Below, piece by piece: positions 21,839-53,851 of a stretch of 64,000 nt of DNA. The number at the start of each line of letters is the position of its first letter. Within the stretch, counting starts at the first letter, position 1. The stretch is from Mobula birostris (Eukaryota): positions 12,675,123-12,739,122 of the forward strand of contig NC_092380.1 of the NCBI RefSeq assembly GCF_030028105.1, written 5' to 3'. The notes beneath the pieces were generated by a model. That model made no database searches. It was not told where the DNA came from and was given only the letters and a program-made list of their open reading frames with translations. The position numbers and the translations under genes were made by a program.

Positions 21839-24800
21839 CTATGTGTTACTTGTGATGAACTCTTCAATACTATCCAGAATTGTTTGTGCTAAAGTCAGGA
21901 CTTCTTGTTCATGACCTGACTTGAAGAGATCATTTGGGACATGGGGCTGTGAATGATAGTTGGGATACTGAGTCTTCTTCCTATCTACTCCATAATCTTT
22001 GAGTTTATTCACCAAGCTCACCAGGTCTGATAGTTTTGCACTATAACTTGATACCTGGTTGGCAAGGTAGGTGATGCTGTGATCACTAATACATATTCCA
22101 CTTTTCTTGTACTCTGCAGCAATCAAAGCTTTCTCCACCGCTTGATGAATTTTAAAATACAGCCATTCAATGGCAGTGCCATCTTGGCCGGAATATCCCA
22201 GGTCATTGTGAGCTGCCCTCAGGTCACATTTTGCTTGTCTAAACCACCTTCGAGCCTCTTCTGGATTGGACTGGTTTTTCTTTGGGAATGAGCAGAATTC
22301 ATTGGCACGGTGGCTTTTTCTCTGCTGTGATCGGCTCTTCTTATGCCTTGATGCCTCACTATTCCACTGATTAAAAAATGATGAAAAATCTTCCTCTTTA
22401 CTGGAGAAGGAGCTTTTGTAATCTGACGAGCAGCTTGCATTCTCAGCTCGGATGACATCCAGCTGCTTCACTTTCTCTTGAATAAAGTGACACAACTGTG
22501 TTGTTACTTCAGTGTTATTTGGATTTTTGTCTGGATGCCACTTTAGGTAAAGGCGGCGAATTGCTTTCTGTCTCTCATCCTTCGGGAGATTTCTTACTTC
22601 CTTTAGATAATCATGAATTTCTTTCTTTATGCTGTCTAAAGATTCATACTTCTGGCTGGATGTTTGTTGCTTGTCTTTTGGTGCATCCCGTACAACAACT
22701 TTCTGGCATATTTCTTCAGGCATCTTTTGTTGACTGAATTTATACAAGTCCAGATGGTTGACTGTAGTGAAGGAGTCTATACCTATCTTTATCTTATACC
22801 TTTGCATTTTTATATCTTTGGCAAACATATCAGTGCTTATCCGCTCAATAAAAATGGCATAGACATAATCAATTGCATTGGGACCTTTGTAAGCCACATA
22901 TTCACCAGCTTTGAAATGATATGCAATATCCATTTCCAGTGTGTGAATAAGTTCTTCTGGAACAGGATCTCCAGGATTAGGCTGGTTGATTGGAATCTCT
23001 ACTTTTAACTTACTAGTGTGAATGCCTTTGTCTTCCAAAACTTTCTTTATGTCTTGTGGATTTTCGCAACTGAGCATCAGCACCAGAATTAATAGTGAAT
23101 CTTTGTTTAAGGCATTCTTCAACAGTACATTGAGCTCTGTTGCCAGTGAATGGATAATGACTGTTCTCATGCTGAATGGTACATTATCTCTGTGCTCCAG
23201 GTAAACCACACCATTACCTGTGCTGCCTATCTTGGTGTAGACTTGTTTCTCAATGCTGGTATCACTTAGCTGTTCTGACCCCAAGCAAAGAATCGTTTCT
23301 AGTTTCTTGCAGCAGATAATTTGCATTTTGGAAAAGACATTTTCACAATCATGCTCAATGTCTCTCACAGGCAGCTCCCCACTGCACTGGCCCTTTAACA
23401 AGCTCGTTAGTCCACCTCTAAAGTTAGAGGACACAAGAATCTTGTAGAAATCATTTTTGAATGTGCAGTTATCTCCATGTGAACATAAACATAGAACTGA
23501 TTCATTAAGAATTTCCTCTGTTATTTGAGAAAGCATACTGGGGCGAATTTCTTCAGGTAGAAACTGTAAGAGATTTATCTGCTTGTAAGGATCAGAACTC
23601 AAGTGACATTCACCAAGATCTAGAAGAAAATTAAACTTTCCATTTAAAACACTGACATCTCTTCTGGAACCTGTACTAATCCTATCATTAAAACATAATG
23701 TATTGGATGGGTACATAACACCATCACTTGCTGGGAGGTATAACGGCTTTAGTTTCTCAACGGCTCGTTCCTCTGTTCTAGACTCCAAAAGTGTAAACAG
23801 ATGATACAAGGTCCGTTTGACGGTGATCATTTGGTTTGGATTTAAGCCACTCACTTTGCTGGTGGCTTCATAGAGAGACCGGAGTATCTGAACAAGGTGA
23901 CAAGCTGATGGTTCCAGAGCAACCCCCAGCTTCTGGAAGAACTCATGATATGGAGCAAGCACTGGAGGGAGCCGGTACAAATAAGGATGAAAATCATTGT
24001 AATTTTGTAATGAGAACACCACCTGGCTGATTTTTATCAGCAGAGTGTCTTCTTCTACAAGAACAATTGGAAGATCAATCAGAGGCAACACATCAAATGA
24101 ATGATTCTGAAGAAAGCCATAAGCAGTCTGAAGCACTCTGGATCTGGTTTTTAAGGCACTACAATTTTTGCAGGGGGCTAAGCAAACTTTTCTAAGGTTT
24201 GTTATGACTACAGACTCTGGAGGAACATAAACAGCACCAGCAGCTTTTAGTCTGCTCATATTTCTTGAGAGTGTACACTTTGATGGTAATATAGGCATGG
24301 AAGCCCAAACCAGTTCCTCATCTTCCTCCCGTTGTTTCACCAGTGAGTCCCTAAAAGCAACAAAATGCCTCCCTTCTGCAAAAGGGGGATGCAAGTTATG
24401 TAAACACTCTCGAACTCTGTGTGGATAGACAAATTTAATATCTGCCACTTTTTCATAAAAATCCTTTTGAAGGTTCTCCTCAGCAACATTACTGAAGTAG
24501 GTGATTAAAGCATCACTTTTTTCAATTAGTTCTTTCAAAGGAGCATGCAGGTTCACCTCTTCTGAAACTTGCAATGCAAAAGCAATAAAATCATCTGAAG
24601 AAACAGAGCACTTTATTCCCAGATCCTTCAGCAATTTGTTCAAATTGGAATCATCATAATAGCATCCCATATCTTTCAAAAAGTTCTCAGGAACAAACTT
24701 TTCTGTAGGAATCATAATTTTAAATAATGGTTCTCTCTTCTCATAGAAATAAGAAACTTTTTGAAATATTCCACTGTTGGCTTTGATAAGTTTTATGTTT

Positions 24801-27800
24801 CTGAGATTAGACACAATCTTTTCTTTCTTCAGGTCATACTCTGCACTATAACAACAGAAGATATTATACAAGAGACGTATGACATCCAGCTTTTGATCAT
24901 TAAATATTTGTTCAATATTAGGAAGGATATAATCCATGAAGAATTGCAAATCATCAATTATCCGTATCCCCAAATCTTCTGATACCTCAATGTTTATCCT
25001 CGTTTTTTTCAAAAATATACATGAGCTGTCTAATTTATATAAGTGTGGAAATGTATTAATGAATTGTGTATTTAGAATGTAAATCACATTGCACATTTCA
25101 ATACTCTCAAAACTCCCTTCCATTGTTTCAAAAAGTGGAAGAGTTTTTAGCTGGTCCTGATAGTTATGTCTATCACTTGTCTGCATTCCAGAATGAAGGA
25201 ACCTCAAAATAGTTTCAATTTCCCACTCACTTAAGTTATTCCACTTTAATTTTGTCAAACGCAGATGTTGTAAAATGGAGGCTTTGTCATCAGTCCTTAA
25301 TGAGTGAGGTCTAATGCAATTAAATAGTACTTTCATAGAAAAGTAATCAGCAGCAATTTTAGCAAACCCAAGTTTTAACAGAATTTGTGCTATGCTTGTT
25401 TGTGTCATTTCACAAATAACACTATTTAATGATCCCACAGGTGCAAGTAGGCACTGGTCATGATAAATTGGACATACTACAGGTAATATTGCAAGGTCTG
25501 AGAATATTAATTTGAGATTATTAAATGTGTTCTCAGTATCATCATCATATTTTACCTGGCTCTCAAAATATTTCCACAATTTCTTCAGCCACTCTGAATA
25601 CTGTTCATTTTCAGTAAACTTTAGCCATGAATGTGGGTCTGTAGAATTAATCTGAAATCTATATCCAAGTTTGTTTCGGATAAATTGCTCTGCTCTTGAA
25701 ATAGTAAAATCTTCTAAATAAAGAGCTGTAATAAGAAGATCCTTGTATCTTTTGTTGACATCATAGTTTGCAAAGTGTGGCTGAAATTCTGGAAATAAAT
25801 CATGGAATTTAGTAATATATTTGGGAGAGGTTCGTTTAAATTTTCCCAGCATATTATCTTGTGTGATCAATAAAGGTAAGTGATTTATAACATTATAATT
25901 TCCTTCCTTGACATCAGAGAGACAGTAGTCTAAAAGAGTCATGCATCTAGCACCATCTTTAATCAAGGATTCACTGAGTGGGAATGGGTAGTTACTGTTT
26001 GTTACCTCTGTATTGTTCAGTGGATGGATTTGAAGAAACTTCCTGACTGCTCCTGGGTTTAAAAGAGAAACCTCCAAACAAGCTCTTTCTAAACTCTTCA
26101 AAACTTTGTGCATAAAGTTAGATTGTAAGACTAAATTCATACCAATATCCTCCAGAATTTCTATCAGTTTCACTGTGATGTGAGTAGTTACAAAATGAGG
26201 AACTTCATCTCTCTTTTCCTTGCTCAAGCTGGACCAAAAAATATTAATAATGTTCTTCTCATTATGAAACTTATTACTTTCATGTTTGGCTATTGGGATC
26301 AGACAAAGGCTTTTTTGATATATGCATTTGTAAACTTGATTTATCATTAACTGCCATTCTTGAGGAACTTCTTCAGAGACATGGGGGAAGAAGTATAGAT
26401 AACTGGGTTCAATGACGTTGAGGCATAATTCCAAACTGTCAGATTTTAGTGGACCTACTCTATTACCAAGTAAATGTACCCGAATGTAATCAAGTAAATC
26501 TGCGTACAAAGGTGCAATCAAGTGTAATTTTAAAAAGTTGTTCCATTTCATCTTTCCACTTTGGCCATCTTGTTTCCAAAGATCTCGCCTGGCAAAGTCA
26601 ACAGCAAAGTTTCCATTGATGTGTACGGGCAGACCAGTTTCTATGGGCAAAGGCAAGAAACAAAAGGCTTTACCTTGAAAGTTACTGCAGTTAATACAGG
26701 CAGCAACAGAGCTCCGGGGCAAAAATGGATGGCCCAGTTTTGAACAAAAGCTCTGCACTGACTCAGTTAATCCTGCTTCATGAACACCCACTTGATTTGC
26801 CAAAATCCATTTGGTTGGATTTTTGACTGAAGATTGAATCTCCATTTCATATATCACTTGGTGAAATTCCATTTTGGATACTACAGCCTTGTAATTTGAA
26901 CACTTCTGGATATAATGCTTCAGGTGTTCCCGTTTGGCAATGCTTTCGAGTGACATTTCTACTTCTGCAGTAAAGATTTCATGCAGGTCACTTGTTTTCT
27001 TTTCCACTTTATGAAAACTGATTTTCTTAATATTATTTAAAAACAAAAGGAGACTATCAGAATCTTCTTTCAATACTTCCAGCAATTCCAGAATTACATC
27101 CTTTGTGACTGCTTGCTTTGAGATATCAGATTTTTCCGCCATTTCTGCTGTTCTCACTGGCAACCGAAACATGGTACCCAATTCGAGATTGAAGAAGGTA
27201 GGGAGAAAAGTAGTATAAACATCCTCAAATGTATTTTTAAATTTCTGATTGACTGTAAACATACCTCCTGGGGAATGTGGCTTTGCTGTGGCCAGCACGG
27301 CTAAATGTGGATCAAAGATGCACAGCACGCTGTCACCTGATATAAAAGAAGGACAGTCCGTCAAGTGATACACTGAATTAAAACCAAGCCCATATTTTCC
27401 AGTTTTCTCTGGACTGTTACGCTTTCCTCCTTCTCCAAGCTGTTGTATACCTTCAATGTCTTTGTCAGTGAACTTCTTGTTATTGTAAACACACAACGCA
27501 GGTCCCTGAAGTGCATTCCATTCCTCACCAAAGGTCTTTGTGTTGCCATGCTTTCTGGGATCCCAAATAAAATGGATTTCTGAGGCCTCAGCATCATCTG
27601 CATTCTGAATCAACTCCTTCAGTATATCTTTCTTGGATGGATAAGCCTTTATGATATTTTTTAAACGGACTGTTAATTTTTCCTGCTGGCCAAATTCTTG
27701 TGCCCATAACGACAAATCTTTGACTTCAAGGTTTTTCATTGCACGGTGTTTTGTTGTCTGAACGTGGAAACGGATAGCTGTTTCTCTAGCGATCTGATTG

Positions 27801-30800
27801 TGGCAGAGATTGACGTCATCTCCGATGACAAGCCATGGTGTATCATTGTACTGTAATGTTTGAGCAGAATGAAGGACACAATGTTGATTAGGCAGGAGAA
27901 CATTCTGCAAGATATCTTCCTGTTCTGAGGCCTCTGCAAATCCTGTAGTTACAATTCTAAGACACACAGCAAGATCACTATCAGAGAGCCTTGTCCCACT
28001 GTATTTTTCTGACATTCTTGTCAGAACAGAGACATAGTCTTGCAGTTTAAAATGTTCCTTGATCTCTAGGCACTTCCATAATTCCTCGCACTCTATGTAT
28101 TCTTTAGGAAGTTCATATAAGTATGGAGCAGCATCAAATGAAACCTTACAAGCAACCAACTCAACAGGGACAAACTGTCCATGTACTAAAATGAAAGGAA
28201 GTTCTTGAGCAGCACTGAAGATTGTGTTTTTTAATTCTGAATCTCCCTTTAACTGTTTATTCAAGTAGAAGTAGCATTCCTTAGTTAATCGTTTCAGTTC
28301 ATTAATTGTTAGACTATTACGCACATATGCCTGCTTTAGTTGTTCTAACACAATCTCAACAGGTGGTTGTTTGTTCAAACCTAGATAAGAAATTGCTTCT
28401 GCAGACAGTTTGATCCCTTTCAACAGCTCTTTGTCTAAAACCATTTCCATCATACTTACTAGTGCATAGTACTTGCAACTGTACACATCCTTTGCTTTCT
28501 GTAAAACTACAGCATCTAAAGTATTATCTTTTTCCCAACTATGTGGGAGAAAAGCTGGGAGGAATGAAATACTCTGTAAACTTTGTTGGTCTTCATTGCT
28601 GAGTTTATTCAAATCTTTGAGCAAATCCAAAATATGGCGAACTCGTTGATATGCTTTGTTCCTCTCAAGGGGCCATATTTTCTCAATTGTCTCTGCTCTT
28701 TCAATTAAATCAAGGAAAGCAATTCTGTCTTTTACCATCCCAAGCATTTCCAATCTTAACAATCTCTCAGGATGGAGAAAATCCTTAGTATGTCCTAGGG
28801 GAAACCGTCCTTCTTCTTCATCATAAAGACAAGCAACTTTGCCCTCTGGATGCACAAGATTTTTAATGTATTGGAGGCCTCTTTTCCCGCTAGATGGAAT
28901 ACAAGGTCTTGTCACTAGCATCTCATCAATATATGTATCCCTCATATCAATTGCATAAATAATAAAGATATTTCTGGTAATGGGACTTAGTGTAGTTAAG
29001 TTCTGAAATACAATTTCCTTGTAAAATGATTCCCAAGTATATGTGTTTTGTTCAATCAAATGTCCAAATCCACTGGCAACGAAACCGTGCCTAACCCAAT
29101 CTGGTAACATAACTGAAATTAAGGGCTTTGATAGGTATTTGGAAAATTCAGTAATTGCAATCTCTCCGACCCTTTTGTTTTCAACAATGGAAGAATCCAA
29201 AAAACGAGCATGGTTTATTGTGCACCAGCCTTGTCCATTGCTGAATGCTTTGACTCTAACACCATTGATTCCGTGTGCAATTGCTCGGTAGAAATTTTCC
29301 ACAATAACTCTAAATTGGTTATCCACATTTTTCACATTAGGCCAAAATGTGTAGTAATCATAATCTTCAAATTCTCCTTTCTGAGACATTTGCTGCATGA
29401 GTGAAATAGATGTGATGTAAGCTGCAGAAACTGCATCTTCCAAAAGAACTTGATTCCATTCTCCTTTTAGTCCAGAGCTCCAAAGATTCTTCCTATTCGA
29501 TGTGACAGCAAACGTTCCATTAATATAAACAGGAAGACCACACTGAAGGGAAAGAGGCAGAAAACAGAACACTTGCCCCAACTGAGCTTCTGTGTTCGGA
29601 GTCCAGTGTCCTGTTTCTTTCTTCTTTTTGAGTGGAATGGCCACGCTTCCAAGAGGAGGGGCAAAATAAGTATTTGTTGCTTTACTGCATGAAAACTGCA
29701 AGGCTTTTGCCATTCCAAAACATGTATGAACTAACCAATATTTTCTATGACTGGGATTATCTATTGTTTCTTCTGTAACCTGTATAATAGTTGAAATTCT
29801 TAGACTTCTGATTTTTCTGGAAAATTTATTTGTGCTTTCCAATATGCTTATAGCGTTTTCTTGCATTTTCTTCAGTGGGAAATTATCTGCCATCTCAATT
29901 ATGTTAAGTATTTGCCGTTCCATTTTGAATACAGAAATTAACTGGTTTTCATGAACTGAATGCTCACTAATGAACTTTAGTGAAACTTTTCTTACATTCT
30001 TTAAGAATATGATGAGATCTTTTGATGTCTGCTTGAAACTATCCACCAAGGCCATGATGTGTTTCTGATTATAATACTTGCTGGAGATCCCTGACACTGC
30101 AGCCTCCTCTGGAGTCCTAAAGGGCAACTTAATGAGGGTTCCTTCATAGTAAAAATTTTCCCCAGTGGAAATCTTAAAATTACATCCAAATATTCCATTG
30201 TAGGGGTTAAACTGTCCAGGAAATTTTTGAATTAATCGTCTATGTTCATACAGATTAAGTTTTATTCCAGGGTTAGTTACAGAATGAATATATTTCTTAA
30301 GATGAGTAACATTTGGGTCAAAAATAAGCAAATATTTTCCACTGAGGATGGATGGGACATCAGTTATGTGATAAACAGAATTAAATCCAAGTCCAAATTT
30401 TCCAATCTTATCAACCTGTTTTTCTTTGGAAGCTGTCCCAATTCTAGTTATATTGTGGAAATCTTCATCAGTGAAACACTCATTATTGTATGACCAGAGT
30501 GCTGGTCCATGACATGAAGCCATACCAGGATCAATTAGACTTTCAGGTGAATCTTTGTGTTGTCTCATGTCTACTAGGAAACTACAGACTGTAGAACCAG
30601 CATCTTCAGCATTTTGAAGCATCTCTTTGAGCAGGTCATGTTCTTGATCATATTCTTTCAAAATGTTCTTAATTCTCAGTACAATGGGTTCTACTTGTCC
30701 ATATTGCTCAATTCCAATTAATTCAGGTTGCAGCATTTTGCTGCTTAAAGGGGGCACATCAAGCCATTCAATAATGGCGATGCTTATATCTTTATGAAGA

Positions 30801-32841
30801 ATATGAATATTTTCATCACATTTATTAAAAGCCTCCATTGTTCCCTTATCTAAATCACACAGAACAGCTTTGGAACATGGTTTCAAGCAGAATCCATCTT
30901 GGGTGCCTTTCCGCACAGGGACAGGAAGGTCACTCTTGGGTGAAAAGTTATTTCTGCGCATCCAATCCAGTATGGAAATAACGGTTTTCAATTCACTTGG
31001 GCTACCACAGCCAGTGTTCATCTTAACTGCATTATCTCTTATCTTATACAGTATCTGAATAACTTCATTGCTGCTGTAACCATTTTTCACCCCGCATTCA
31101 AGTAGTAACTCTCTATACTGAGCGATTTCCTGTGGGATTTTTTTTACATAACAACTGAGATCCAAATCTTCAGGATAGGAGAAAACAATATTGTGAGGAT
31201 GTGTAAACCCAGCCCCATTCCATACCCATGGCAGCTCTATAGTCAGGAGAAGTGGTTTAAATTGACTAAGGTTTTTTTGCATGTGTTCATAGATGTTTTG
31301 CAAATCTGCCAGAAAATTACGAAGAGTGTTACTAGAGTTGGATATCTGGTTAACCATTAGTAGGAAGTTTTCAACCACCTTCTCAGCTGGTGGTAAGTTC
31401 AGTAGCCCCAGGATTTTGCCTGCCTTCTCAATGAACTTGTCAGTAAGTGGCATCACTAGCCCCACGATGTTAGCGTATTTCAAATCCCTTACATTTTCAA
31501 GCTTATAAAAATTAATCTTTACTTTCTTATGTTCTGTCAGTGTTTTTGGACAAGTGTTACAGGGCACCCACTGCAAACAGCATAATTGTTCAATGGTTTG
31601 ATACGAACAAATAGCCAAAACTGAAGTTGTATTACACAATTGAATTAAAACGTCTGCTTTTTTACAAAGACTGTCAATGTCACTAGTATGGCTGTGTTGC
31701 TTATCTATCAATTGTGCAACTTTTATAATGTCTTCTGGTGAAATATTCTCTTCTTCTGATTTCAGCCCCAGTTTTTGTAATGCCTGCAAAATTTTCTCAT
31801 CCTTACAATAAAGTGGGGGCGGAAAAAAGTGCTGATACTCTGTCTGAAAGAGATGCTGAAACGCCACATTATTTGGATCAAATAAAGAAGCAGCTGGTAC
31901 AACCTTGTCCTTTGATGTTAAAAATTTAAGTGTTTTACATTTGCTGAATAATTCTGGTTTCTGTTTAAAAAGTATCTCACTATGTTTTAGAATCCAGAGC
32001 ATTACCTTTTCAATTTGCTCAGGATCGTACTTTTGGGTTTCTACCCCCTTCAACATGAGCAAAGCAACATCTGCTGCTGTCAGTAATTTTCCTTTCATCA
32101 GCAGCAGTTTCCTGTCATTTTCATCTACACATTTAAGTACAGTTTCTGGTAGAGGCACATCATCTGGGATCTCAGGGTAGACATCATTACTCAGGGCTCC
32201 ATGTGGTCCAGCTGTGATAAACCCTTTGTCTGACGGCCTAAGGGAAGTCATCTGTTGAAAGATTGGTAACTTGAATAACATATTTATCTCATCAGTCTCA
32301 AAAATGGATGCTTCTGCAAGAAAACTTCTCAAAGATCTTCTGTCTTCGGTTGACATACAGTCAATCTCTTTTACTACCTGATCACAACCCAGATTTAAAA
32401 AAACCTTTAAGACATTATTTGGGCTGGGTAAAAACACATACTCAGATAACTGCTGATGCTTTAGAAATTCATCAGTGCTCTGAACTATGCTGCCCCCAGC
32501 TCTTGAAATTATACTTGCAATTGTACCTGGTAAATTGTAACCAGTTTGCATTTGAAATATTGTGGTGATGTTTTTTGACAAATGTGCTAGCTGGATACTG
32601 TTTGCACAATCTTTTAGTGAGTTGAGTGGTATGAGTGGTAATCCTTCAAACTTATCCAATGTTTTACAATTGTTATTCAAGAAATTCCAAAATTCTGCAA
32701 GCCAATGCACTGGTGGGTGCTGCCTATTTAAAATATCCCATGTTATGGGACCTAATGTTCCACTCCAGGCCTCTGGAAGAGCTTTCCAAATGTACTGCCT
32801 CACAGTATTCACATCCAAACAGATGACATTGGCAAATATTT
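21839..32841 (-). CDS. Sacsin-like protein, giant terminal coding exon (end of SRR1, SRR2, SRR3, J domain, HEPN)
   Basis: Uninterrupted 11-kb ORF. It has two Hsp90-like (GHKL/Bergerat) sacsin modules (YGQVEP..KEMLQNAEDAG..IGKFGLGFNSVYHITDVP; FGQQEK..KELIQNADDAEA..TGKYGLGFNSVYHLTDCP), a J domain (RRLYLKWHPDKN, HPD at 22529-22537) and a HEPN domain (RRWFRQAKCDL..HQAVEKALIAA). The strong acceptor ttctttattgtgttcttcttccag|AA at 32841 is in phase with the upstream exon, so the ORF-track GTG start at 32914 is intronic. Confidence 0.95.
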
Positions 32842-33495
32842 CTGGAAGAAGAACACAATAAAGAATTTCCAGTGCTTTGTTTCCAATATCATTCTGTACA
32901 TTAAAACTTATCACAGTTAATGAATCATCTGATTAAACATTGGAAATAACAGACAGAAAATGCCATCCGGTAACTTACGCCTGCTCTACCATTTATTAAG
33001 ATGATTTTCTACTGCAACACCATTTTCCAGCACAACTCCTATATTACTCGATTGACTAAACACAATCGAGCCTCCACAGGCCTCCATCGCAGAGAATTCT
33101 AAAGGCCCATCCTAAATATTGACCCTTTAATTTCAAAAAGTGTACACAGATTCATGCCTTTTCAGCTGGGGAAGCATCCTCCCTACATCTCTCTTGTCAA
33201 GCCCTTAAAAGAATGAAAGGAGAGCTTATCAAAACTTCAAATCCTTAAAGCAGTTCTGTTCCTTTTCTCCCCTGGTTTTATTGTCATGATGCAGAACTGC
33301 AGTTTTTGAGCACCGCTGTAGATCAAAGGTCCCAATTAGAAATATCCATTGTATTAAACATGGATATTTCAACTAGGTAAGGAAAGTACTTTAAAGAAGA
33401 CACGAGGAATTCTGCAGATGCTGGAAATTCAAGCAACACACATCAAAGTTGCTGGTGAATGCAGCAGGCCAGGCAGCATCTCTAGGAAGAGGTAC

Positions 33496-33531
33496 AGTCG
33501 ACGTTTCGGGCCGAGACCCTTCGTCAGGACT
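33496..33531 (-). ncRNA. Minimal type I hammerhead ribozyme motif (Penelope-associated)
   Basis: AGUC-CUGACGA-A-GGG(UCUCGG)CCC-GAAA-CG-UC-GACU: full catalytic core, stem I AGUC/GACU, stem II, vestigial palindromic stem III. Confidence 0.75.
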
Positions 33532-34164: not shown

Positions 34165-34200
34165 AGTCCTGACGAAGGGTCTCGGCCCGAAACGTCAACT
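34165..34200 (+). ncRNA. Minimal hammerhead ribozyme motif (inverted copy)
   Basis: AGTC CTGACGA AGGGTCTCGGCCC GAAACGTC AACT; core intact with one stem I mismatch. Confidence 0.65.
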
Positions 34201-34596: not shown

Positions 34597-34685
34597 GACT
34601 ATAAGCAATCTTCTTTAGATGATCCAGCAAAGTATCACAAAGATCTTCAGGCAAAAATCTCTCCTCAAGTCCTGGAAGTAAAATC
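34597..34685 (-). CDS. Sacsin-like coding exon 6 (89 nt; ILLPGLEERFLPEDLCDTLLDHLKKIAYS)
   Basis: tttatag|G...AGTC|gtaag. Phase 2 in and phase 1 out, joining exon 40480-39010 and the giant exon exactly. The peptide resembles the equivalent sacsin segment. It is missed by the ORF track. Confidence 0.9.
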
Positions 34686-35798: not shown

Positions 35799-35877
35799 CA
35801 GGGGTTCCCAATCTTTTTTATACCATGGACAACACCAATAAACAAGGGGTCTGTGGACCCCTGGTTGGGAATCCCTG
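35799..35877. mobile_element. hAT (Charlie-like) mini-MITE inside a CR1 3' remnant
   Basis: TIR caggggttcccaa/ttgggaatccctg; 8-bp TSD gtttggag/gtttagag. Confidence 0.7.
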
Positions 35878-39009: not shown

Positions 39010-40480
39010 CTTGGAAATTTTGCTGAGTCAGTAAATACAGGCTCATCACATGAACTGATTTGGAATCTTATAAAGGATCCATTGGTGAGTGGCAGTAATG
39101 GAAGGTTGTTGAGGGAACTATATTGCTCATCACTTAAAATGTACTCTAGAAGCAGTAATTTTTGTTCATATGGCAAAGTATACAAATCACAATGTTGAAG
39201 AATGTTTCGTAAGTATGCTGGAGTGATAATATTTAAGGCACTTTGATTTTCTAATGCAAATTCTAAGGCCTTAAATACATGAACTGGGACTCTAACCAAC
39301 GGTTGAGCCTCTTTTATCAAAACATTCTCAATTGCCTTCTTCATATCAGGCCGATCACAGCAATGCAAAAAGATGGCTTTGCCAGCAGTTATCCAGTTAT
39401 CTTCACAGGCAGCCAAGCACAGAGTATTAAGTTTCATCAAATGTTTAGTGATTTCTTTAGCTATGTTAACCCAACGGTCTTTATGATTCATTTTCTCGAG
39501 GTCTGGCCAGATATGATACACCGAAAAAGGTTTTAGCACTGAGGCTTTAGCCAGAGTAATAGCATCCAGGATCAGTTGGCAGTATGCATAAGGAAGGATC
39601 TTTTCTATCAGTAGCTCATTCCACTGGGCAGCTTCATCATATTTTTGGTCCGATTCAATCCACTTGATATGTCTCCGGTTATCTGAAAGTCCAAAGAAGG
39701 CATTTACATGGACTGGCAATCCTGTCCTGTTGGCCTCATTATTTGGAAGTGGCAGAAAAAAACTAAGACGGCCTTCAAAGTCTGTTTCTGCGCTAGTTTC
39801 TGAAGATTCTACTTTATTCAATGGAAAAGCCAATCCAACACATGGTGTATAACTCAGCCTCTCAGCCAGATCATCTAATTTACCCCATTCACCTGCAATG
39901 CCTATGCAGTTTGTTATTAACCAGTGATTATGATGTTTTTCGTTGACAAAGTATTGAGAAATAGCTCTGATACAGGTAGAAGTTTTAACCTTGCAGAACA
40001 GTTCTTGATTTTGAACATTGAGATTCCAGTTAAAACTGGGGAAGTGTTCAGGTTGCAAAGTTGCTATTTTTGAAAGGACCTTCACATTTCCATTGGTGTC
40101 AATATGCTTAATTGACACGGATGCAATATTTCTTAGAAATAAGAGATTCATATCTTCATCTGCTCTAAAGGAATCAAAAAGATCAAAGATTTTATCTCTA
40201 TCATACGAGCTAGCTAATATCTCTGAAGGTTCAGTTCTCAAAGGAAACCTAAACAATGTTCCTTTGAAATAATTCTCTTTCAATGCATTACTCCATGTTG
40301 TTGTTCCAGTCACTTCCATGGCGCATTTGAATGGTCTGAACTGATCCCTTGAGTGTTCAAGAACATTCCTGTCTTCTCTATCATCAAGAGTCCATATATA
40401 TCCAGCTTCCTGTTCACCAAACAGCTTTTGCTGAGGGTCGAATATACCAATATACTTCCCACTGAATATGCTTGGTACAT
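39010..40480 (-). CDS. Sacsin-like coding exon 5 (1471 nt; SRR1 sr1-sr2)
   Basis: tttttacag|AT GTA CCA (DVPSIFSGKYIGIFDP), GTLFRFPLRT, FFLPLP..TGLPVHVNAFF; donor CCAAG|gtaagc. Confidence 0.93.
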
Positions 40481-40829: not shown

Positions 40830-40976
40830 CTGTGATATGATAAATAGTATTGAATCCCAGTCCAAATTGGCCGACTTTGCTGGGATCATTACGTTTATTA
40901 CTGATTCCTGTAGTTTGAATGCTATTCCAATCTTCTTCTGAAAACACTGAATCATTGTATACTATGAGAGCCGGAC
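40830..40976 (-). CDS. Sacsin-like coding exon 4 (147 nt; GPALIVYND..VGQFGLGFNTIYHIT)
   Basis: ccattag|GT..ACAG|gtgaaa; contains the GHKL G-box motif; phases 1/1 fit both neighbours. Confidence 0.93.
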
Positions 40977-41909: not shown

Positions 41910-43056
41910 CACATAAAAGTTGCTGGTGAATGCAGCAGGCCAGGTTGTATCTCCAGGAAGAGGTACAGTCGACATTTCGGGCCAAGACCCTTCGTCAGGA
42001 CTAACTGAAGGAAGAGCTAGTAAGAGATTTGAAAGTGGGAGGGGGAAGGGGAGATCCAAAATGATAGGAGAAGACAGGAGGGGGAGGGATGGAGCCAAGA
42101 GCTGGACAGGTGATTGGCAAAAGGGATATGAGAAGATCATGGGACAGGAGGCCTAGAGAGAAAGAAAAGGGGAAGGGGTAAGTCTAGAGGATGGGCAAAG
42201 AGTATAGTGAGAGGGACAGAGGGAGAAAAAGGCGAGAAAAAGAATGTGTGTATATAAATAAATAAATAATGGATGGGGTATGAGGGGGAGGTGGGCATTA
42301 GTGGAAGTTTGAGAAGTCAATGTTCATGCCATCAGATTGGAGGCTACCCAGACGGAATATAAGGTGTTGTTCCTCCAACCTGAGTGTGGCTTCATCTTGA
42401 CAGTAGAGGAGGCCGTGGATAGACATATCAGAATGGGAATGGGACATGGAATTAAAATGTGTGGCCACGGGGAGATCCTGCTTTCTCTGGCGGACAGAGC
42501 GTAGGTGTTCAGCGAAACGGTCTCCCAGTCTGCGTCGGGTCTCGCCAATATACAGAAGGCCGCATTGGGAGCACCGGACGTAGTATATCACCTAGCCGAC
42601 TGACAGGTGAAGTGTCGCCTCACCTGGAAGGACTGTCTGGGGCCCTGAATGGCAGTGAGGGAGGAAGTGTAAGGGCATATGTAGCACTTGTTCCACTTAC
42701 AAGGATAAGTGCCAGGAGGGAGATCAGTGGGGAGGGATGGGTGGGACGAATGGACAAGGGAGTCGCGTAGGGAGCGATCCCTGTGGAAAGTGGGGGGGGG
42801 GGTGGAGGGAAAGATGTGCGTAGTGGTGGGATCCTGTTGGAGGTGGCAGAAGTTACGAAGAATTATATGTTGGACCTGGAGGCTGGTGGGGTGGTAGGTG
42901 AGGACAAGGGGAACCCTATTCCTAGTGTGGTGGCACATCTTTGACGAAGGGTCTCGGCATGAAACGTCGACTAGAGATGCTGCCTGGCCTGCTGCGTTCA
43001 CCAGCAACTTTTGTGTTGCTTGAAATTCCAGCATCTGCAGATTTCCTCCTGTTTGC
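41910..43056 (-). mobile_element. Penelope-like element (GIY-YIG endonuclease remnant, partial inverted terminal repeat)
   Basis: IYYVRCSQCGLLYIGETRRRLGDRFAEH..VATHFN..EEQHLIFRLGSL; RVPLVLTYHP; perfect 15-bp TSD ggataatggaataca (41895-41909 and 43057-43071). Confidence 0.9.
41967..42002 (-). ncRNA. Minimal hammerhead ribozyme motif (variant)
   Basis: AGTC CTGACGA AGGGTCTTGGCCC GAAATGTC GACT. A broken plus-strand copy lies at 42941-42972. Confidence 0.6.
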
Positions 43057-43689
43057 GGATAATGGAATACAGTCATTATGGAGTCAACATCTTTCATTTG
43101 AGAATACATGAATCCTCAGGGCATCAGGCAATGACTGACATGAAAACACACTGCTAATTACCATCCTGCTGTAGTTAATGAAATAGTAGTCCTCACTATT
43201 GAACACTATATGGAAGAAACTCCAAGAGAAACAAAGGAACTGAACGTAAGCTACTTCAACATCCTTCAATGTGAGAAGCTCGTTCCTCACATCATTCATC
43301 AAGTCTCCCAAGGCTAGAAGAATGCAGCTATCAGATTAGGCTTATGACAGGAATGGGAATCAATACTGTACAAGGAAAAAAACCTTTCAAGACAGAGCAG
43401 TTGTCTAATTGGCAACCATTTCACAACGATTTAATTCTTCCAGTATTCATGTTTTGTGAAAGTAGCATGCACCATTTACAAAAAGATAACTCAACAAAGT
43501 GTATTTGCAACCATCTCCCAAACTTTTAACTTCAGAAGGACAATGGCAGCAGGTACATGGGGACCACCTGTAACCTGAGAAAATTGGACATCTTTCACAG
43601 AATTCCTTGACCAACTTATCAATACCTACCAGAACCTGATCATTATGATTAATTTGTCCAACTAATCTGGAAAGTAGCACAGCAGAACA

Positions 43690-45807
43690 TACCTAGAGGC
43701 TGCAGAACCAAATATATTCAGGGATTGACTAGTGATATCAAGCAAAGTTATGGTGAGTGTGTCAACTTATACAACCAAGACCAGTTTGGTCAAGACACAA
43801 TTGAAATGGGAGAGTCAGTTCTGTCCCTACTGAGCCAAGAGAGACAACAGCGTTGGCAGGACCTGATAGAAAACACAGACATGACCAAGAACAGTAAGAA
43901 GGCATGGGCAACTGTTCAGAAACTCAAGACAATAGACCACCACAGAGAACTGCTGCCGTAACACCCAATCAGGTTGCCCACCAACTGATACTAAATGGTC
44001 GACCAAATAACAAGGAATGGAGGCAAAAGAAAAAGCAACATCAGGAGATGGAGTCAGAATAACAACTTCCCACCTCTCACCCTGGAAGAGTTAAAGGATG
44101 AATTATCACAGCTAAAATCCAACAAAGCTGCTGGCATTGATGGGATTCTTATTGAACTCTTTAAACATCTTGGACCTAAAGCTTCTGTCCCTTTTTAACT
44201 GTTGCCTAAGATCATTAAGGATACCTAAAAAGTGGAGAAGAGCCAAAGTTGTTGCTCTCCTAAAACCCAATAAAGACCCCAACATTCCTAAAAACTACAG
44301 ACCGATTTCCTTGCTCTGCACCCTCTATAAACTCTACAAAAGACTCATACTGAAAAGAATATCCCCCTTAGTCGAAGATCTAACACCAGACCAAGCCGGG
44401 TTCAGGCCAGGCCGCTCTTGCTGCGGTCAAGTTCTGAACTTAACCTAGTATACTGAGGATGGCTTTGAAATGCGACAAATTACAGGGGCAGCATTTGTTG
44501 ATTTAACAGCAGCATACAACACTGTGAATCACAGAGACCTTCTACTGAAATTATCCAAAATGTTAAGGAACGAAACCACAGTCAAAGTAATAAGAAGCCT
44601 CCTAGAAAATCGTAGATTTTATGTAGAAATTAATGGAATTAAGAGTAGGTGGCATCCACAAAAGAACAGACTACCACAGGGATCAGTCCTGGCACCTCTA
44701 CTACAAACGTTTTGTATCTAATATCTACACAAGTGACCAACCAACCTTTCCTAACACACGCAGGTTTATCTATGCAGACGACCTATGCATAGCAACACAA
44801 GCTAACTCCTTCCAAGAAGTTGAAGTACGACTTACAGCGGTGCTCGAGGCAATAAAACAGTATTATGAAAAATGGTCTCTGAACCCAAATCCATCAAACA
44901 CTCAAGTGTGTGCATTCTACTTGAGGAATTGAGAAGCAGCTCAGAAACTCAAGATTTTCTGGTGTGGGAAGAAGCTCGAACACCATCCGACTCTAATTTA
45001 CCTAGGCGTGACACTGGATAGGACGCTCTCATTTGCCACCCACATCCAAAAACTCTAAGGGAAAGTTGGCTCTCGCAATTCTCTCTTAAAAAAATTAGCA
45101 GGCACGAAATGGGGAGCTGATGCTCACACACTTCGATCAACTGCCCTAGCACTCTGCTATGCACCTGCAGAATACTGTGCACCTGTGTGGGGCAGATCAG
45201 CCCATGCGAAGAAAATAGACCCGTTGCTTAACGAAGCCTGCTGAATAATCACGGGCACACTGCGCCCCACACCCACTAACATCATTTACAGACTTGCAGG
45301 CATTGCTCCCCCAGAGATCCGAAGACACACTACAACAAAAATTGAAAAAGGTACACAGAACTCGGATCCACGGCACCCACTACATCATCATGTGCCAGTT
45401 TCCAACTGCCTAAAATCGAGGAAAAACTTTGCTACAGTAGAGGAACTACCACACGGAACATCCCCCCAAATATACAGGATTGACATCTGGCAACCAACAG
45501 AAGCCAGAACCCCACTAAACAATACAGTGCAAGACCCCACAGAAATGTTACCAGACAGGGCACTGCTTGACAGACGGAAGTGGTGCACTCTCAACAGAGC
45601 GAGAGTGGGAGTTTGTAGGATGGGAGACAATATGGTGAAGTGGTGTTTAAAGACCAGCGAATCCTGTGAATGTGACAAAACGGTGCAGAACATTGAACAT
45701 GCTCTGCACAATAGCCCACTCTCACCTGATTTAGCTGATACTGACCTGCTCAACATCAACCAAACAACACTAGAGTGGCTGGCTGTCTGGTGTGAAAAGC
45801 TATGATG
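43690..45807 (+). mobile_element. Vingi/Ingi-like LINE, 5'-truncated, disrupted RT
   Basis: IPRGCRT.YI.G, KPNKDP..PKNYRPISLL, QAGFRPGRSCCGQVLNLT, FVDLTAAY.TVNHR, FIYADDL, WGADAHTLRSTALALCY..AEYCAPVW; (TGA)n tail; acctagagg/acctatagg at the ends. The LINE call is firm; the clade call is from memory. Confidence 0.75.
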
Positions 45808-46625: not shown

Positions 46626-46737
46626 CTTGAAACTTTTTAAGATCCTTCATAAACAAAGATGTTGACCCATAAGTTCTTTCGTCAAATATAAACACCACCT
46701 CATTTGCTTCAGCATCATCTGCATTTTGAAGCAATTC
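46626..46737 (-). CDS. Sacsin-like coding exon 3 (112 nt; ELLQNADDAEANEVVFIFDER..FQ)
   Basis: ttgtttctaag|GAA..CAAG|gtacgt; contains the GHKL N-box motif ELxQNAxDA. Confidence 0.92.
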
Positions 46738-46849
46738 CTTAGAAACAAGGAGAGCAAAATCAAGTGTATGGATAAGCAATCCCTTCCCTTCAGTTCTCCA
46801 GTTAATTGTCTCCAAACAATTTATGATGTTCAATGACAATGAGAAGTAG

Positions 46850-49165: not shown

Positions 49166-49178
49166 ATTGAGTATTTAC

Positions 49179-49266
49179 CTTGAGAATCTGGCCTCCATCG
49201 GGGTATCGACGTAGTATCTCTTTCAGATAATCAATAAATTGTGGAGCAGTTGCACCAAATTTCTTC
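49179..49266 (-). CDS. Sacsin-like coding exon 2 (88 nt; [29 protein letters not shown])
   Basis: aatatag|G..CTCAAG|gtaaat; matches the start of sacsin SRR1 (FGQ..ILRRYPEGGQILK). Not in the ORF track. Confidence 0.92.
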
Positions 49267-49719
49267 CTATATTAATAATAAAAGTTCATCTATGGCTTGA
49301 GTATTAATTCCAAATGACCGTTGTATTATGGCTTTTTTCTATAACTGCTGTATCCAATTATTTTATTTCACCTTACAGGCTGCTCAGTATAAAAAAATGC
49401 ACACTTGACTTTAGCACTTGTGTGTTGGGCTCTGCCAACACTCAGGATAAATGTGTTCATGAAACCTCTTTGTTAGTGGTCTGCCACTTTCAGAATTGGA
49501 TGTAGCAAGCTTACAGAGCTTTATTTGTTGTGATTATAAAATACTGCCTTTGCTTTTTAGAATACATGTAGTCCTGCTTTATAATTTTAGCAGCATCTCA
49601 TTTTTAGATGCATCACCTGCAGCTTCAAGCATGCTCCTTTACATTCAAATTGAACCAGAACTGGTTTAATGGAAATGGTGATGGAGATAGTGTGCCACAA
49701 AGCTTTATAATAACTTTAA

Positions 49720-50650
49720 TATAGAGACTGGTAGGTGATAGGTGGAACCAGATGAAGGGGAAATGAGGGGCAGATGGAACCAAGTGGGAAGGGAAGAAGA
49801 AACCCAGATGGATAGATGAATAGGAAATGGGAGATAGAACAAGATAGGGGAATTGATGAATCTAGGTAATGAGGGTGGGAGGAATTCAAAAGGTTAAGAG
49901 AGTGAGGGAGATCCTGGGTGGATTAGTGAGAGTTGAAAAGGAACATGGGATGGTGAAGGAGGTCAGAGTTAATCTTAAATTGGAAAATTAAATGTTAACA
50001 TTGGGCTGTAGGCTACCCAAGAGGAATACAAGGAATAGTTCTACATTAGCTTTACTTTACCATGGCAATAGGCCAAAGAACAGATGTTTTGGTGTGGTGT
50101 AGGATGAGAAGCTGAAATCACATGCATCCAAATCTCAAGGTGCTCATTACAGATAGAGCACAGGTGCTCTGCAAAACCATTGCCTAGTCTATGCTTAGTC
50201 TTTTCAGTGTGGAGGAGGCCACATTTTGGCCTCATGGGCCAGGTTGGAGGAGGTACATAAGAATTAGGAAGACTGTTTAAGTCACTGGATGTTGGTGAGG
50301 GAGGTGTAGGGACAAATGTTGCACCTCAGGGAAAGTTCCAGGGACAGCAAGTGGTGGGATTTATGGGATGATCTGACCAGGAGTTTCCCCAGAAAGCAAA
50401 AAGGGAAGGGAGAGGAGAAACCGTGGCTGGTGGTGGAATCCTACTGGAGCTGGTGGAAGCAGTGATATGGTGGATGTGCATGTAGTAGAATTGAAAGGTG
50501 AAGACCAGGGAAACTCTACATGTGTTCTTTTTAAGGAGAGTGGTGAAGCAGACATGTGAGAAATGAGGAAACGCATGTAAGCACTCTATCAACTGTGCCA
50601 CTGGGAAAGCCACATTTCCTGAAGAAAAAAGACATTTCAGAAGCTATCTT
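49720..50650 (-). mobile_element. Old Penelope-like fragment
   Basis: CGLLH.EKTKHRLGN.FAEHL (GIY-YIG-like), RVSLVFTF and a purine-rich terminal repeat remnant. Confidence 0.6.
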
Positions 50651-50751
50651 ATGTATTTATATATATATTGTATTTTTATTACTTTTTTATCTTATTCTGT
50701 TTTTTTTTGTGCTGCAGCGGATCAGGAGTAACAATTATTTTGTTCTCCTTT

Positions 50752-51712
50752 AGTGCGCACGCACCGGTCGTGCATGCAGCCTGTTACAGCCGTTCCGACC
50801 AGTATTATTACTTTTTCTTCTTACTTTTTAACTTACATTTTGTTTTGTATTTTTTTTTTGCATGGTAACACGTCCAAGCTGCACTCTTTCTAACATGCTG
50901 GTAGAGAGAGTTTTATTTGGGTTTTTAGCGCTGGAAATAGTTACATTCCGACACATCTCATTAGCGGGAGCATTGTGTATTCCAGGGACCAACTGATTGA
51001 GCTTATGCCGGCCAGTTTAGCGAGCAGAGCAGCGGACACCCTTGCTGAAATCTGGAGGAAAATACACAGAGGATGCAGAGGGGGATCACAAAGGCGAGGA
51101 AAGAGGACCGGGTCGAGACAACAGAGACTTATGGAGAAGAAGAGTTCGGTGGGTAATAAAATGGATGAGTTCACGGCGCTAGCCAGGCGTCAGAGAACAT
51201 TCCGGGAGTGCAGTGTTATGTGTTTCACTGGAACGGGGCTGCACGAGGACATACCCGATCAAAACTTCTCCATGGAGGGCTTCCAGACCGTTCGGGCTGA
51301 CCGGAAGTGCACTGAGAGCGGTAAGCGTAAAGGAGTTCGGTGCTTACTGTTCTGGTTAACAACAGATGGTGCAATCCGGGTCATATTACGATCGAGGAAC
51401 GTGTTTGTAGACCGGATATTGAACTTTTTGCTGTTGGACTTCGGCCATATTCCACCGAGATACAACACTGGGCGGCATGGGAGGTCATTCCTGCCTGTGG
51501 CCATCGAACTTGCAGCTCCTCCCGTGGAGGGTCAGACACCCTGAGCCAATAGGCTGGTCCTGGACTTATTTTCCATCTGGCATAGTTTGCATTTTGTTGT
51601 TTGATTGTTTGTGGTTTTTGTATTGCTATATTTATGCTCTATTCTTGGTTGGTGTGGCTGTAATGAAACCCAATTTCCCTCGGGATCAATAAAGTATATC
51701 TGTCTATCTACA
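50752..51712 (+). mobile_element. Internally deleted Rex/Babar-type element (5' end and APE start joined to 3'UTR)
   Basis: SVGNKMDEFTAL..ECSVMCFT.T.L..IPD..FQTVRADR..SGKRKG; 3' end cccaatttccctcgggatcaataaagta(tctg)n. Confidence 0.65.
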
Positions 51713-53034
51713 CTTGTGTACTGGAAATGACATTAAACAATCTTGAATCTTGAATATCAGAAGTACCAGAGTAGAAATCCTCATCTTGAAAACAGATGCA
51801 ATGGAGATGGAGATCTGAGAGAACAGGATGACACTCTTACATAAGACAAGTTGGAAGGAGGTGCAGTTAATATAGCCGTGAAAGTCTGCAGGCTTATGAT
51901 AAATATCGCTGTATAGTTTATATTCTGAGATAGAGACAGAAAGATCCAGAAAATAAGTGTCAAAAATATTCCAGGTAAATTTGAGGGCAGGGTGGAAGTT
52001 GGTGGCAAAGGTGATAAAATTCTACTACTTTCCTCCTGCTTTCTCTTGCCTGCAACTCAGCGGCATCATTTTGAACTTCATTCTACAATTTAGCCAAGTT
52101 GTAAGACTAGTGTAAACTCAACTGAAAATGTAGGCAAAATTTGTTAACACTACATAAATATGTTTTCATCTGTGCAATCCAGTTTTTTTTGGGGGCATTG
52201 TGCTAAAAACTTTCTCAGCCCAAATTTGAAAGAGACACAAGGAAGAACAGGTGAACTCAAATATGTGCCAGCAATTATCTTCAATAGGATGCATTAAGAA
52301 AAAAAACTCAAATGTCAAAATAGAAGAATATCATGCCAGCAGAAGAAAACTTAATGAGCAATACAATTCCCTTACATTGTTGGACTTCTTACTTACTTGC
52401 TTATCCATTCATTCATTCATCCATTTATTCATTTATCCATTTATTCATTCATCCATTTATTCATTTATTTATTTAGAGATACAGCACAGGACAGGTCATT
52501 CTGGCACAACAAATGGCGCTGCGCAGCAATCTACCTATTTAACCCAGCCTAATCACAGGACAATTCTACAATGACCTATTAACCTGATAACTGATACATC
52601 TTTAGGCTCTGGGAGGAAACCCACACGGTTACAGAAAGAATGTATGAACTCTTTAGAGATTGTGCCAGAATCGAGCTCCAAACTCTGATGTCCCAAGCTA
52701 TAATAGCATTGTGCTACCGAAGTGCCCAGATAATGTTCTTCTGTCCTCATATACAATATATAAAGACCAGAAGAATTGACCCAACTAATCTGATTAGATT
52801 TGTTCATTATAAAGTTTAAGTCCAAATGAGGCTGTGTAAAACAAAAATGTGAATCAATGTTTGAAAAATATCTGAAATTTGACTGGCAGCTTTTATACAG
52901 ATCTGTATATTGTTCCATGTTTACTCCTGAACATTACCCAGGTAGTTAGTCTGATTTTCTACTCTACAAATGCATGAACACACTCTGAATTTAATTATTG
53001 CTTCAACATATTATTGACCCTTCCTTCATTATAC

Positions 53035-53102
53035 CTGATCTTTTTGTTACTGCTGCTGATGCTGCCTCCAGCCCGACTTTCAGGATGCAGTGAAGAAGAC
53101 AT
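53035..53102 (-). CDS. Sacsin-like first coding exon (ATG at 53102; MSSSLHPESRAGGSISSSNKKIR); the exon begins at 53124
   Basis: Polypyrimidine acceptor ttttttttactttcattaag|GTG at 53124, ATG 22 nt later, donor ATCAG|gtataa in phase 2 matching the next exon. It sits in non-repeat sequence. There is no homology support, only splice and phase logic. Confidence 0.7.
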
Positions 53103-53851
53103 CAGTTGAGATGCTGCTGTACACCTTAATGAAAGTAAAAAAAAACAATTATCATTAGTGACTGTGGAATATCAAGAAACTTGCGCCTAGTCAACATATT
53201 TTAATTCCAAGTGGTAAAAGAAATGCACTTGTATGTACTTGATTTTCTACAAAATACTTAACTGCCCGTAAACCATAATAGTCACTGAAGGACTGCTTTC
53301 CTTCTTCCTTTTTGTGGATCGTGCTATCCAGATCGCTAATAAACTTTGTTGTCTGAAAAAGAACTATCTTTACCCTAAGTCCTTCAGCGGAACAATTTTA
53401 AGAGCTTCAAAAAATTTACAGTGGCACAGCTAAGCTTAATCCTGACCTCGGGTGTTTTCCTTGTGGAGTTTGCAAGTTCTCTATGTGACCATGTGGGTTT
53501 CCTCTGGGTGCTCCGGTTACCTCCCACATCTCAAAGACATGCATGCCAGTAGGTTACCTAGGCACTGAAGATTGCTCCCAGTGTGGAGGTAAATGGTAGA
53601 ATCTGTGGAGATTTAATGGAATGTAGGGAACAGGGGATAATGCAGGATTAGTGTAAATGTGTTTTTCTTGGTTGGGATGGACATGATGATCTGAAGGGCC
53701 TGTTATGTGCTGCATCCATTTGTGACTCTAAAAGATAGTCACCCACCTCACAAATACCCATACAAATACCCATACAAATATTAGCAATCTTCAGACTTGT
53801 ATTTAATCTAGAATTCATGAAGATCAAATCAGAAGAAAAACCATCAGTTTT

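Follow-up and report, generated by a model that had tools for sequence, protein, structure and literature searches.

Background

The closest described relatives of the gene treated here, a sacsin-like gene on the minus strand of the ray Mobula birostris (positions 21839..53124 of the window, that is, of the whole 64,000-nucleotide stretch analysed, 12,675,123 to 12,739,122 of contig NC_092380.1 in assembly GCF_030028105.1), are the Type XI-A "Tiamat-like" SACSIN homologs (10.64898/2026.09.30.754977). As far as the accessible text of that source goes, a limit that holds for every publication cited below, these proteins likewise combine three ATPases with a J and a HEPN domain, have no ubiquitin-like domain (UBL) and match the Tiamat profile; an antiviral role of Type XI-A was raised there as an open question. 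Tiamat (TmtA) itself and plant NO VEIN, for which antiviral roles were shown or indicated, share with the ray protein a sacsin-type GHKL ATPase, a solenoid and a beta-sheet domain (10.64898/2026.09.30.755639). However, Tiamat has one ATPase repeat and a C-terminal PD-(D/E)xK DNase, where the ray protein has three repeats, J and HEPN. The HEPN-T family (PF05168; PMC3710099) is alike in its HEPN fold and its helix-2 HQxxEK motif, yet the ray protein carries Gln for the catalytic Arg and has no nucleotidyltransferase partner. Invertebrate sacsins, as in amphioxus, show the same UBL-less architecture as the ray protein.

SACS, the ataxia gene, belongs to the sister clade of the sacsin-like lineage and resembles it in SRR1 to SRR3, barrel, J, HEPN and the intron positions within SRR1, but differs in its UBL, its sarcoglycan neighbour, its slow evolution, its presence in mammals and the HEPN residues set out below. 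A second zebrafish sacsin, sacs2 (si:dkeyp-118h9.7), has been ascribed to the teleost genome duplication (PMC8395086). Furthermore, teleost "sacsin-like" genes respond to virus (PMC11357929, PMC3534563, PMC11258392, PMC8875540); several of the fish induction papers treated the induced gene as the ataxia ortholog, and their induced amplicons fall in the clade of the ray gene.

Both the UBL-less architecture of three ATPases, J and HEPN (10.64898/2026.09.30.754977) and the induction in fish are already known. The accessible description of Type XI-A contains no dating against SACS, no analysis of the HEPN site and no link to fish induction, and it presents the group as aquatic chordate and XPCB-less, whereas the lineage described here includes lizards, snakes, turtles and birds. 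The XPCB-equivalent stretch of the ray protein aligns at 57 of 77 positions, 14 of them identical, and is about 20 residues shorter. In the accessible literature, which comprised neither subscription journals nor bioRxiv supplements, we found no dating before the gnathostomes, no reptile or bird members and no mammalian loss, nor a J-less bird form, a complementary HEPN pattern, the barrel or a reconciliation of primers.

An earlier note, made from the letters of the window, had proposed an intact sacsin paralog lacking the UBL as a candidate immune sensor-effector. Our analysis points to a second sacsin lineage of great age, and we consider it somewhat probable that its ray member is a virus-induced cytoplasmic antiviral defence protein rather than one for the maintenance of neurons.

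Two vertebrate sacsin lineages

Trees of 84 (FastTree) and 31 sequences (IQ-TREE), chosen from about 390 proteins, agree in grouping the ray protein with the sacsin-like proteins, a clade whose sister group consists of SACS and hagfish. The sacsin-like clade, the SACS plus hagfish clade and their union each received an ultrafast bootstrap (UFBoot) of 100, the supports quoted being split supports. Approximately unbiased (AU) tests, based on 5,000 replicates and fast constrained trees, reject both the grouping of the ray protein with SACS (p 7e-110) and a position of hagfish outside both clades (p 9e-11). The second, non-SACS lineage suspected in the earlier note is thereby borne out. Because hagfish sacsin groups with SACS, the duplication that gave rise to this lineage appears, on the strength of the trees, to be older than jawed vertebrates. 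Long branches could in principle mislead such trees; yet hagfish sacsin also has a UBL in common with SACS, and both have lost the Glu-Lys pair of HEPN.

An origin of the second sacsin in the teleost genome duplication was rejected (AU p 3e-4), and with it the origin ascribed to zebrafish sacs2 (PMC8395086); the 4,250-residue zebrafish sacsin XP_682866, assumed to be identical with sacs2, lies in the same clade as the ray gene. We also discarded a split of the gnathostome sequences into two sub-lineages in which sharks stand nearest to teleosts; it received 0.977 in FastTree but a UFBoot of only 66. Since the alternative, in which sharks branch as the sister group of every bony-vertebrate copy, is not rejected (AU p 0.2), we regard the ray gene as co-orthologous to each of these copies. 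Bowfin, sturgeons and gars possess two deep sacsin-like sub-lineages, of which the sampled teleosts kept one, and some teleosts and one newt carry several sacsin-like copies on one contig.

The lineage occurs in fish, amphibians, lizards, snakes, turtles and birds: a gecko query retrieved at least 22 squamate, at least 7 turtle and at least 43 bird records in addition to amphibians and fish, and the eight sauropsid proteins that were sampled fall within the sacsin-like clade. No mammal outside SACS was found among the best 120 matches of this query, which reach into SACS (1,655 candidates scored). As only these 1,655 candidates were scored, loss of the gene in mammals is likely rather than proven. 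The presence in cartilaginous fish stressed by the earlier note is real but nothing special to them, as the lineage spans the jawed vertebrates except, apparently, mammals.

The Mobula genome contains two sacsin loci, one of them the single sacsin-like copy (both counts being lower bounds). The other, on contig C8, is a SACS gene 70% identical to human SACS and grouping with it; it has two UBL exons, stands tail to tail with a sarcoglycan gene (whose exons start 58 kb away) and has an AMER gene about 1 Mb away. The sacsin-like protein is 32% identical to it, does not group with human SACS and has neither an N-terminal UBL nor linkage to SGCG: on C13, the contig of the sacsin-like gene, no sarcoglycan or AMER genes were found. 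We take the SGCG linkage of SACS to correspond to the human 13q12 block, the gene order there being presumed. A whole-genome-duplication paralogon with SACS was considered and rejected (AMER copies on C8, C12 and C5, sarcoglycans on C4 and C8, none on C13). The expectation of the earlier note that an SGCG-linked SACS would lie elsewhere in the genome is met by the C8 gene.

Domain architecture and the UBL

A Pfam search recognises three SACS repeats and a HEPN domain in the sacsin-like protein, which, with a J domain before the C-terminal HEPN, presents the order of the sacsin family. N-box and G-box motifs are intact in all three GHKL ATPases, including SRR2 (29942..30691, minus strand as for all features of the gene; EMLQNAEDA and GKFGLGF) and SRR3 (26978..27685; ELIQNADDA and GKYGLGF), and so is the HPD (residues 4094-4096) of the J domain (22436..22639; match to 1iur, E 3e-12). 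In the model of the last 700 residues (pLDDT 85), solenoid helices can be made out along with a beta-sheet domain, a small barrel, J and HEPN. The beta-sheet domain closing SRR3 (residues 3762-3929, 23030..23533, from the structure model) is, by analogy, likely equivalent to the beta-sheet fold that has been reported in Tiamat, NOV and sacsin (10.64898/2026.09.30.755639). The HEPN domain (21857..22264; Pfam E 8e-9, motifs HQAVEK and TQYPNYH) superposes in the model on human sacsin HEPN 3o10 with Z 21.7 (rmsd 1.7, 139 aligned) and on the HEPN-T structures 1ufb, 2hsb and 1wol with Z 12.7-15.1.

The small barrel (residues ~3945-4030, 22727..22984, model pLDDT 86) is predicted to resemble a Tudor or chromo barrel. 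Folded alone, it gave mostly weak matches of Tudor, chromo-barrel and PWWP type, none with E under 0.001; the best match (Z 7.6, rmsd 4.2, 82 aligned) and that to the ERCC6L2 Tudor (Z 7.0, rmsd 2.0, 58 aligned) are both below the tool's caution line of 8, and an ESM Atlas search yielded low-recognition bacterial leads only. The barrel is common to SACS and invertebrate sacsins and absent in birds; in the accessible sacsin literature we found no mention of a Tudor-like barrel. Among SACS orthologs, human SACS included, this stretch is 84-94% identical. As its conservation (0.64) matches that of the neighbouring domains (0.61-0.73), we dismissed the idea that the barrel is a hypervariable sensor surface. 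For research on ARSACS (autosomal recessive spastic ataxia, Charlevoix-Saguenay type), the lineage offers a natural comparison without UBL and, in birds, without J, as well as a probable Tudor-like barrel in human sacsin.

Only about 25 Ser/Gly/Lys-rich residues precede SRR1 in the ray protein. A profile of the UBL, derived from 82 SACS N-termini, recovered the two UBL exons of SACS on C8 as a positive control (E 4e-24 and 2e-6), but neither this profile (nothing under E 1) nor tblastn detected UBL exons at or upstream of the sacsin-like gene within 49266-64000 and a further 80 kb upstream, 94.7 kb in all. The absence of a UBL, and of UBL exons between 49.3 and 62.8 kb in particular, is thus as the earlier note had it. 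Applied to 137 N-termini, the profile matches two hagfish proteins only, and it matches none of 72 reptile and bird sacsin-like records. In line with this, the SRR1 motif YPxGGQ begins at a median residue of 30 in the 120 closest relatives (104 scorable) versus 108 in SACS (86 scorable). The earlier wording "lacking" nevertheless requires amendment, as it is SACS that changed: since sacsins of amphioxus and other invertebrates (among them two echinoderms) have no UBL and hagfish SACS has one, the UBL was, as read from these sequences, gained on the SACS stem, and the UBL-less form is ancestral and not a loss. We considered whether exon 1 might be a remnant of the second UBL exon and dropped the idea, as the phases differ and the two show no similarity.

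The HEPN site and the bird form

HEPN RNases carry an Rx4-6H motif. The ray and all 120 of its closest relatives have Gln at the position of the catalytic Arg, while the His and the acidic residue of helix 2 are present. Among these relatives, H4224, Q4225 and K4229 occur in 120/120, E4228 in 117/120 and H4288 in 115/120, and position 4280 is Lys or Arg in 115/120. SACS shows the reverse, with the Arg kept (118) and HQxxEK and the distal His lost. Most invertebrate sacsins carry H-Q-x-x-E-K-x-x-K in helix 2 together with the Arg in an R-Y-P motif, and amphioxus sacsin possesses the full Rx4H and the whole residue set. Judged by these residues, the two vertebrate paralogs have degenerated at HEPN in a complementary manner. 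Two hagfish proteins and chimaera SACS, all within the SACS clade, also have Gln at the Arg position; therefore the Arg-to-Gln change arose more than once.

Because the catalytic Arg is replaced throughout the 120 relatives, "effector" cannot mean a canonical RNase, an activity that is unlikely for this HEPN domain. A non-canonical ribonuclease, in which a ligand-switched composite Glu/His/Lys site would cut viral or host RNA in the manner of RNase L, strikes us as quite improbable too. The five helix-2 and distal residues persist in a family whose members share about 40% identity elsewhere, are lost in SACS and stand complete in amphioxus, which speaks for such an enzyme, as do the Lys/Arg at 4280 and the HEPN-T families without Arg but with His that are regarded as possibly active (PMC3710099). 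Nevertheless, Gln stands for Arg in every relative, the residue next to it is Tyr and not N, D or H, the Lys of Ex3K is lost, and KEN and PrrC domains depend on the Arg (PMC3710099).

The J domain behaves differently among the branches. Its HPDK is present in 119/120 closest relatives, 20/22 squamates and 7/7 turtles but in 0/43 birds, whose proteins are about 170 residues shorter between beta-sheet domain and HEPN, the barrel and J being gone and the ATPase repeats kept. A HEPN motif stands at the end of 36/43 bird records, 34 of them with Q..H; the other 7/43 have none, and those inspected are truncated. Several palaeognath records end before HEPN, by annotation or by real loss. Taken together, the proteins suggest that HEPN, rather than Hsp70 recruitment, is what every branch kept. 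This bears on the possibility that the gene encodes an inducible proteostasis co-chaperone, whose J domain would recruit Hsp70 while its repeats keep hold of misfolded clients under infection or other stress, so that the cell would be protected although the virus itself is not acted on. The HPDK conservation outside birds and a HEPN domain without its catalytic Arg agree with this explanation, which is also the one given in fish reviews (PMC8875540). We hold it to be possible but rather doubtful, as birds dropped J and barrel and retained ATPases and HEPN, and as sacsin-like is co-induced with core antiviral genes.

Response to virus in fish

Published primers, translated and mapped on both lineages, allow the induced fish "sacsin" to be assigned. 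In lumpfish, poly(I:C) induced sacs-like and repressed sacs (PMC11357929). The sacs-like primers are exact in 11/172 sacsin-like and 0/120 SACS proteins, SRR3 of SACS being one residue off, and the sacs primers map to SACS (113/120 within 4 mismatches; 0/172 sacsin-like). Likewise, cod "SACS" was induced 10-17 fold (PMC3534563), and its primers lie at the start of the sacsin-like HEPN (4-5 mismatches of 12 in 30/116 scored), as opposed to 10 mismatches in 118/118 scored SACS. In sea bream, "sacs" was not induced by nodavirus (PMC11207047); the primers correspond to the UBL/SRR1 junction of SACS, where GQTTPP occurs in 85/120 SACS and 0/120 sacsin-like proteins. The amplicon apparently being SACS, the reported failure to see induction would thereby be explained. 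By this primer mapping, the induced amplicons (2/2) belong to the sacsin-like lineage and the uninduced or repressed ones (2/2) to SACS, so that the fish "sacsin" induced by poly(I:C) or virus is likely the sacsin-like paralog.

Trout sacsin-like, whose paralog assignment rests on the published name, is among eight genes widely induced by infectious pancreatic necrosis virus across leukocyte types (PMC11258392), and a review places sacsin among the core nodavirus-response genes (PMC8875540). The main text of a zebrafish interferon-stimulated gene paper does not mention a sacsin-like gene (its supplements may list it), and "sacs" does not occur in the main text of RNAquarium. It appears that fish immunology has confused two genes, the core virus-response "sacsin" being the sacsin-like paralog and not the ataxia gene. 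Of the sensor-effector envisaged by the earlier note, the membership in the lineage of the induced fish "sacsin" survives; the canonical RNase effector, with no HEPN Arg in any of the 120 relatives, does not.

Proposed function

For the ray itself, induction by poly(I:C) may be inferred by analogy with the fish orthologs. In the antiviral protein that we favour, three GHKL clamps, powered by ATP and carried on solenoid arms, would take hold of large particles of protein or of RNA and protein, as suggested by analogy with Tiamat and Hsp90. The HEPN dimer might bind RNA, as human sacsin HEPN does (PMC13669270), canonical cutting being improbable. HEPN would be the conserved output, and Hsp70 recruitment by J an optional accessory step. 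After the duplication, subfunctionalisation might have made SACS, which gained the UBL, a slow housekeeping and neuronal protein, while the sacsin-like copy would have kept the older UBL-less, inducible form.

The pace of divergence was counted in favour of this reading as immune-like evolution, along with the multiple copies per contig in some teleosts and a newt and the lack of mammals among the 120 matches listed for the gecko query. The ray sacsin-like protein is 71, 45, 40, 41, 42 and 43% identical to those of six other vertebrates, as against 84, 73, 70, 71, 72 and 70% for SACS of the same species over the same region; towards bony vertebrates, this amounts to 40-45% versus 70-73%. Moreover, the sacsin-like repeats match Tiamat profiles (seven TmtA models, best E 8e-114).

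Several points weigh against the antiviral role. The fast divergence could reflect relaxed constraint. One copy was found in this genome and chondrichthyan orthologs are 70-95% identical, so there was no local expansion. As SACS, the neuronal paralog, matches the Tiamat profiles as strongly (E 2e-108), this similarity does not discriminate; the link to prokaryotic conflict ATPases drawn in the earlier note is real but holds equally for SACS. All induction data come from teleosts, and induction alone is no proof of antiviral action. The "like" assignment in lumpfish comes from one codon and from the other pair being SACS, since 120/120 SACS are within 2 mismatches in SRR3, and the spacing of the sea bream primers implies about 103 bp versus the 124 stated. 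Finally, no clear interferon-stimulated response element (ISRE) was found near the likely first exon, where the sole match lies in a low-complexity purine tract and the start site is inferred; scans there for gamma-activated sites (GAS) and kB sites were uninformative.

Some of these points would also suit a redundant housekeeping paralog that takes on cytoskeletal or organelle tasks like those of SACS, evolves under relaxed constraint and became dispensable to the point of loss in mammals, fish induction then being a teleost novelty. Such a role would accord with the architecture and SRR1 intron positions shared with SACS, the CpG-rich promoter without a clear ISRE, the single copy in the ray and the teleost origin of all induction data. 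We nevertheless judge it very unlikely, given that the two lumpfish paralogs are regulated oppositely, that the lineage-specific HEPN residues are invariant and that the gene is retained in all jawed-vertebrate classes but one.

A bolder form of the antiviral reading, which we put forward as a speculation unlikely to hold in full, would see in non-mammalian vertebrates an overlooked virus-induced descendant of bacterial defence ATPases of the Tiamat type: a 4,000-residue sensor whose Arg-to-Gln HEPN, with Glu and His kept, cleaves or sequesters RNA, which mammals lost, and whose domesticated, UBL-bearing and catalytically dead sister is SACS. The question left open by two 2026 preprints, namely whether eukaryotic relatives of Tiamat still fight viruses, has become testable, as the sacsin-like lineage responds to induction, is represented in zebrafish and birds and can be knocked out while SACS stays intact.

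Gene structure and neighbourhood

Six-frame translation reveals two long open frames on the minus strand, one of 3,697 codons (32932-21842) and one of 511 codons (40541-39009). Guided by relatives from sharks and rays and by splice sites taken from the DNA, we assembled seven coding exons, which comprise 12,978 nt (4,325 residues plus stop) without internal stops; all six introns are GT-AG and their phases agree. The intact seven-exon reading frame of the earlier note is exactly the same. Exon 1 (53035..53124, with the ATG at 53102) encodes the Ser/Gly/Lys-rich N-terminus without UBL, which is the same in shark, skate and chimaera models. Exon 2 (49179..49266) starts SRR1, whose N-box ELLQNADDA and G-boxes GQFGLGF lie in exon 3 (46626..46737) and exon 4 (40830..40976), respectively, and exon 5 (39010..40480) adds the remainder of the SRR1 ATPase and the transducer region. 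Exon 6 (34597..34685) follows from homology guides and splice sites, and the last exon (21839..32841) runs for 11,003 nt to the stop, encoding the SRR1 tail, SRR2, SRR3, beta-sheet domain, barrel, J and HEPN. An alternative, weaker acceptor upstream, at 32928, would give a 4,354-residue protein; the chosen model is 95% identical end to end to the Hemitrygon protein with 2 gap positions, and the ray protein is 93-95% identical to the Hypanus and Hemitrygon proteins, a level by which the host is judged to be a ray of myliobatiform type.

RNA-like contigs, of unstated tissue and with depths unused, so that no expression levels can be derived, contain the spliced joints 40480/40830, 40974/46624 and 46741/49183 (3/4 runs overall). 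The joint of exons 2 and 3 was seen in 2/4 runs, that of 3 and 4 in 3/4 and that of 4 and 5 in 2/4, and one run has no differing letters across pieces of 887, 362 and 149 bases. One such contig of 736 nt extends some 270 nt beyond exon 2 on the upstream side, a length that exon 1 together with a first exon of 180 nt in the CpG-rich patch near 62.8 kb would account for, although this is arithmetic on a contig end, which need not be the transcript end. A likely non-coding first exon (5' untranslated region) lies at 62696..62880, its upstream end being approximate; it matches the first exon of Hypanus and its donor is in phase with exon 1. Neither this exon nor the barrel had been picked up in the earlier note. 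This exon (observed/expected CpG 0.76, GC 58%, no in-frame ATG) sits in the sole CpG-rich 500-bp block between 52.5 and 64 kb. It contains a 9-codon out-of-frame upstream open reading frame (~62,733-62,704, minus strand) that could tune translation. Directly after its donor follows a tandem array in which a 16-bp unit is repeated about 47 times (61,952-62,697), and a purine-rich tract (62,922-63,245) is found just upstream of the exon. A longer N-terminus of Hypanus type was rejected, as the ray has ACG in place of the Hypanus start codon and the frame is a different one. In the Hemitrygon model, the first exon maps 43 kb upstream (C13 ~12,781,400-12,781,510) and was set aside as probably an annotation artefact; the matching region looks to us like a remnant of a long interspersed nuclear element (LINE). 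In the introns (for example at 37,481-38,881, 42,152-43,115, 44,116-45,802 and 55,794-56,720), translated frames show what we take to be decayed LINE and Penelope-like pieces.

Downstream, a GARIN-like gene, not part of the sacsin gene, has two exons on the minus strand within 5030..9090 (~8,990-9,090 and 5,030-5,150) and a third just left of the window, as the earlier note had seen in naming this neighbour. A scan of 150 of 544 candidate frames gave the downstream order NUCB1-like, TPH-domain gene, Tub/TULP and GARIN-like at C13:12.595-12.685 Mb. This order presumably resembles a block in human 19q13.3, where we know of no sacsin. Two further GARIN-family loci exist in the genome, at C13:24,126,953 and C27:8,568,851, and, a little to the left of the window, the GARIN-like gene or the sequence past it holds a long GC-rich minisatellite with frames open in several phases.

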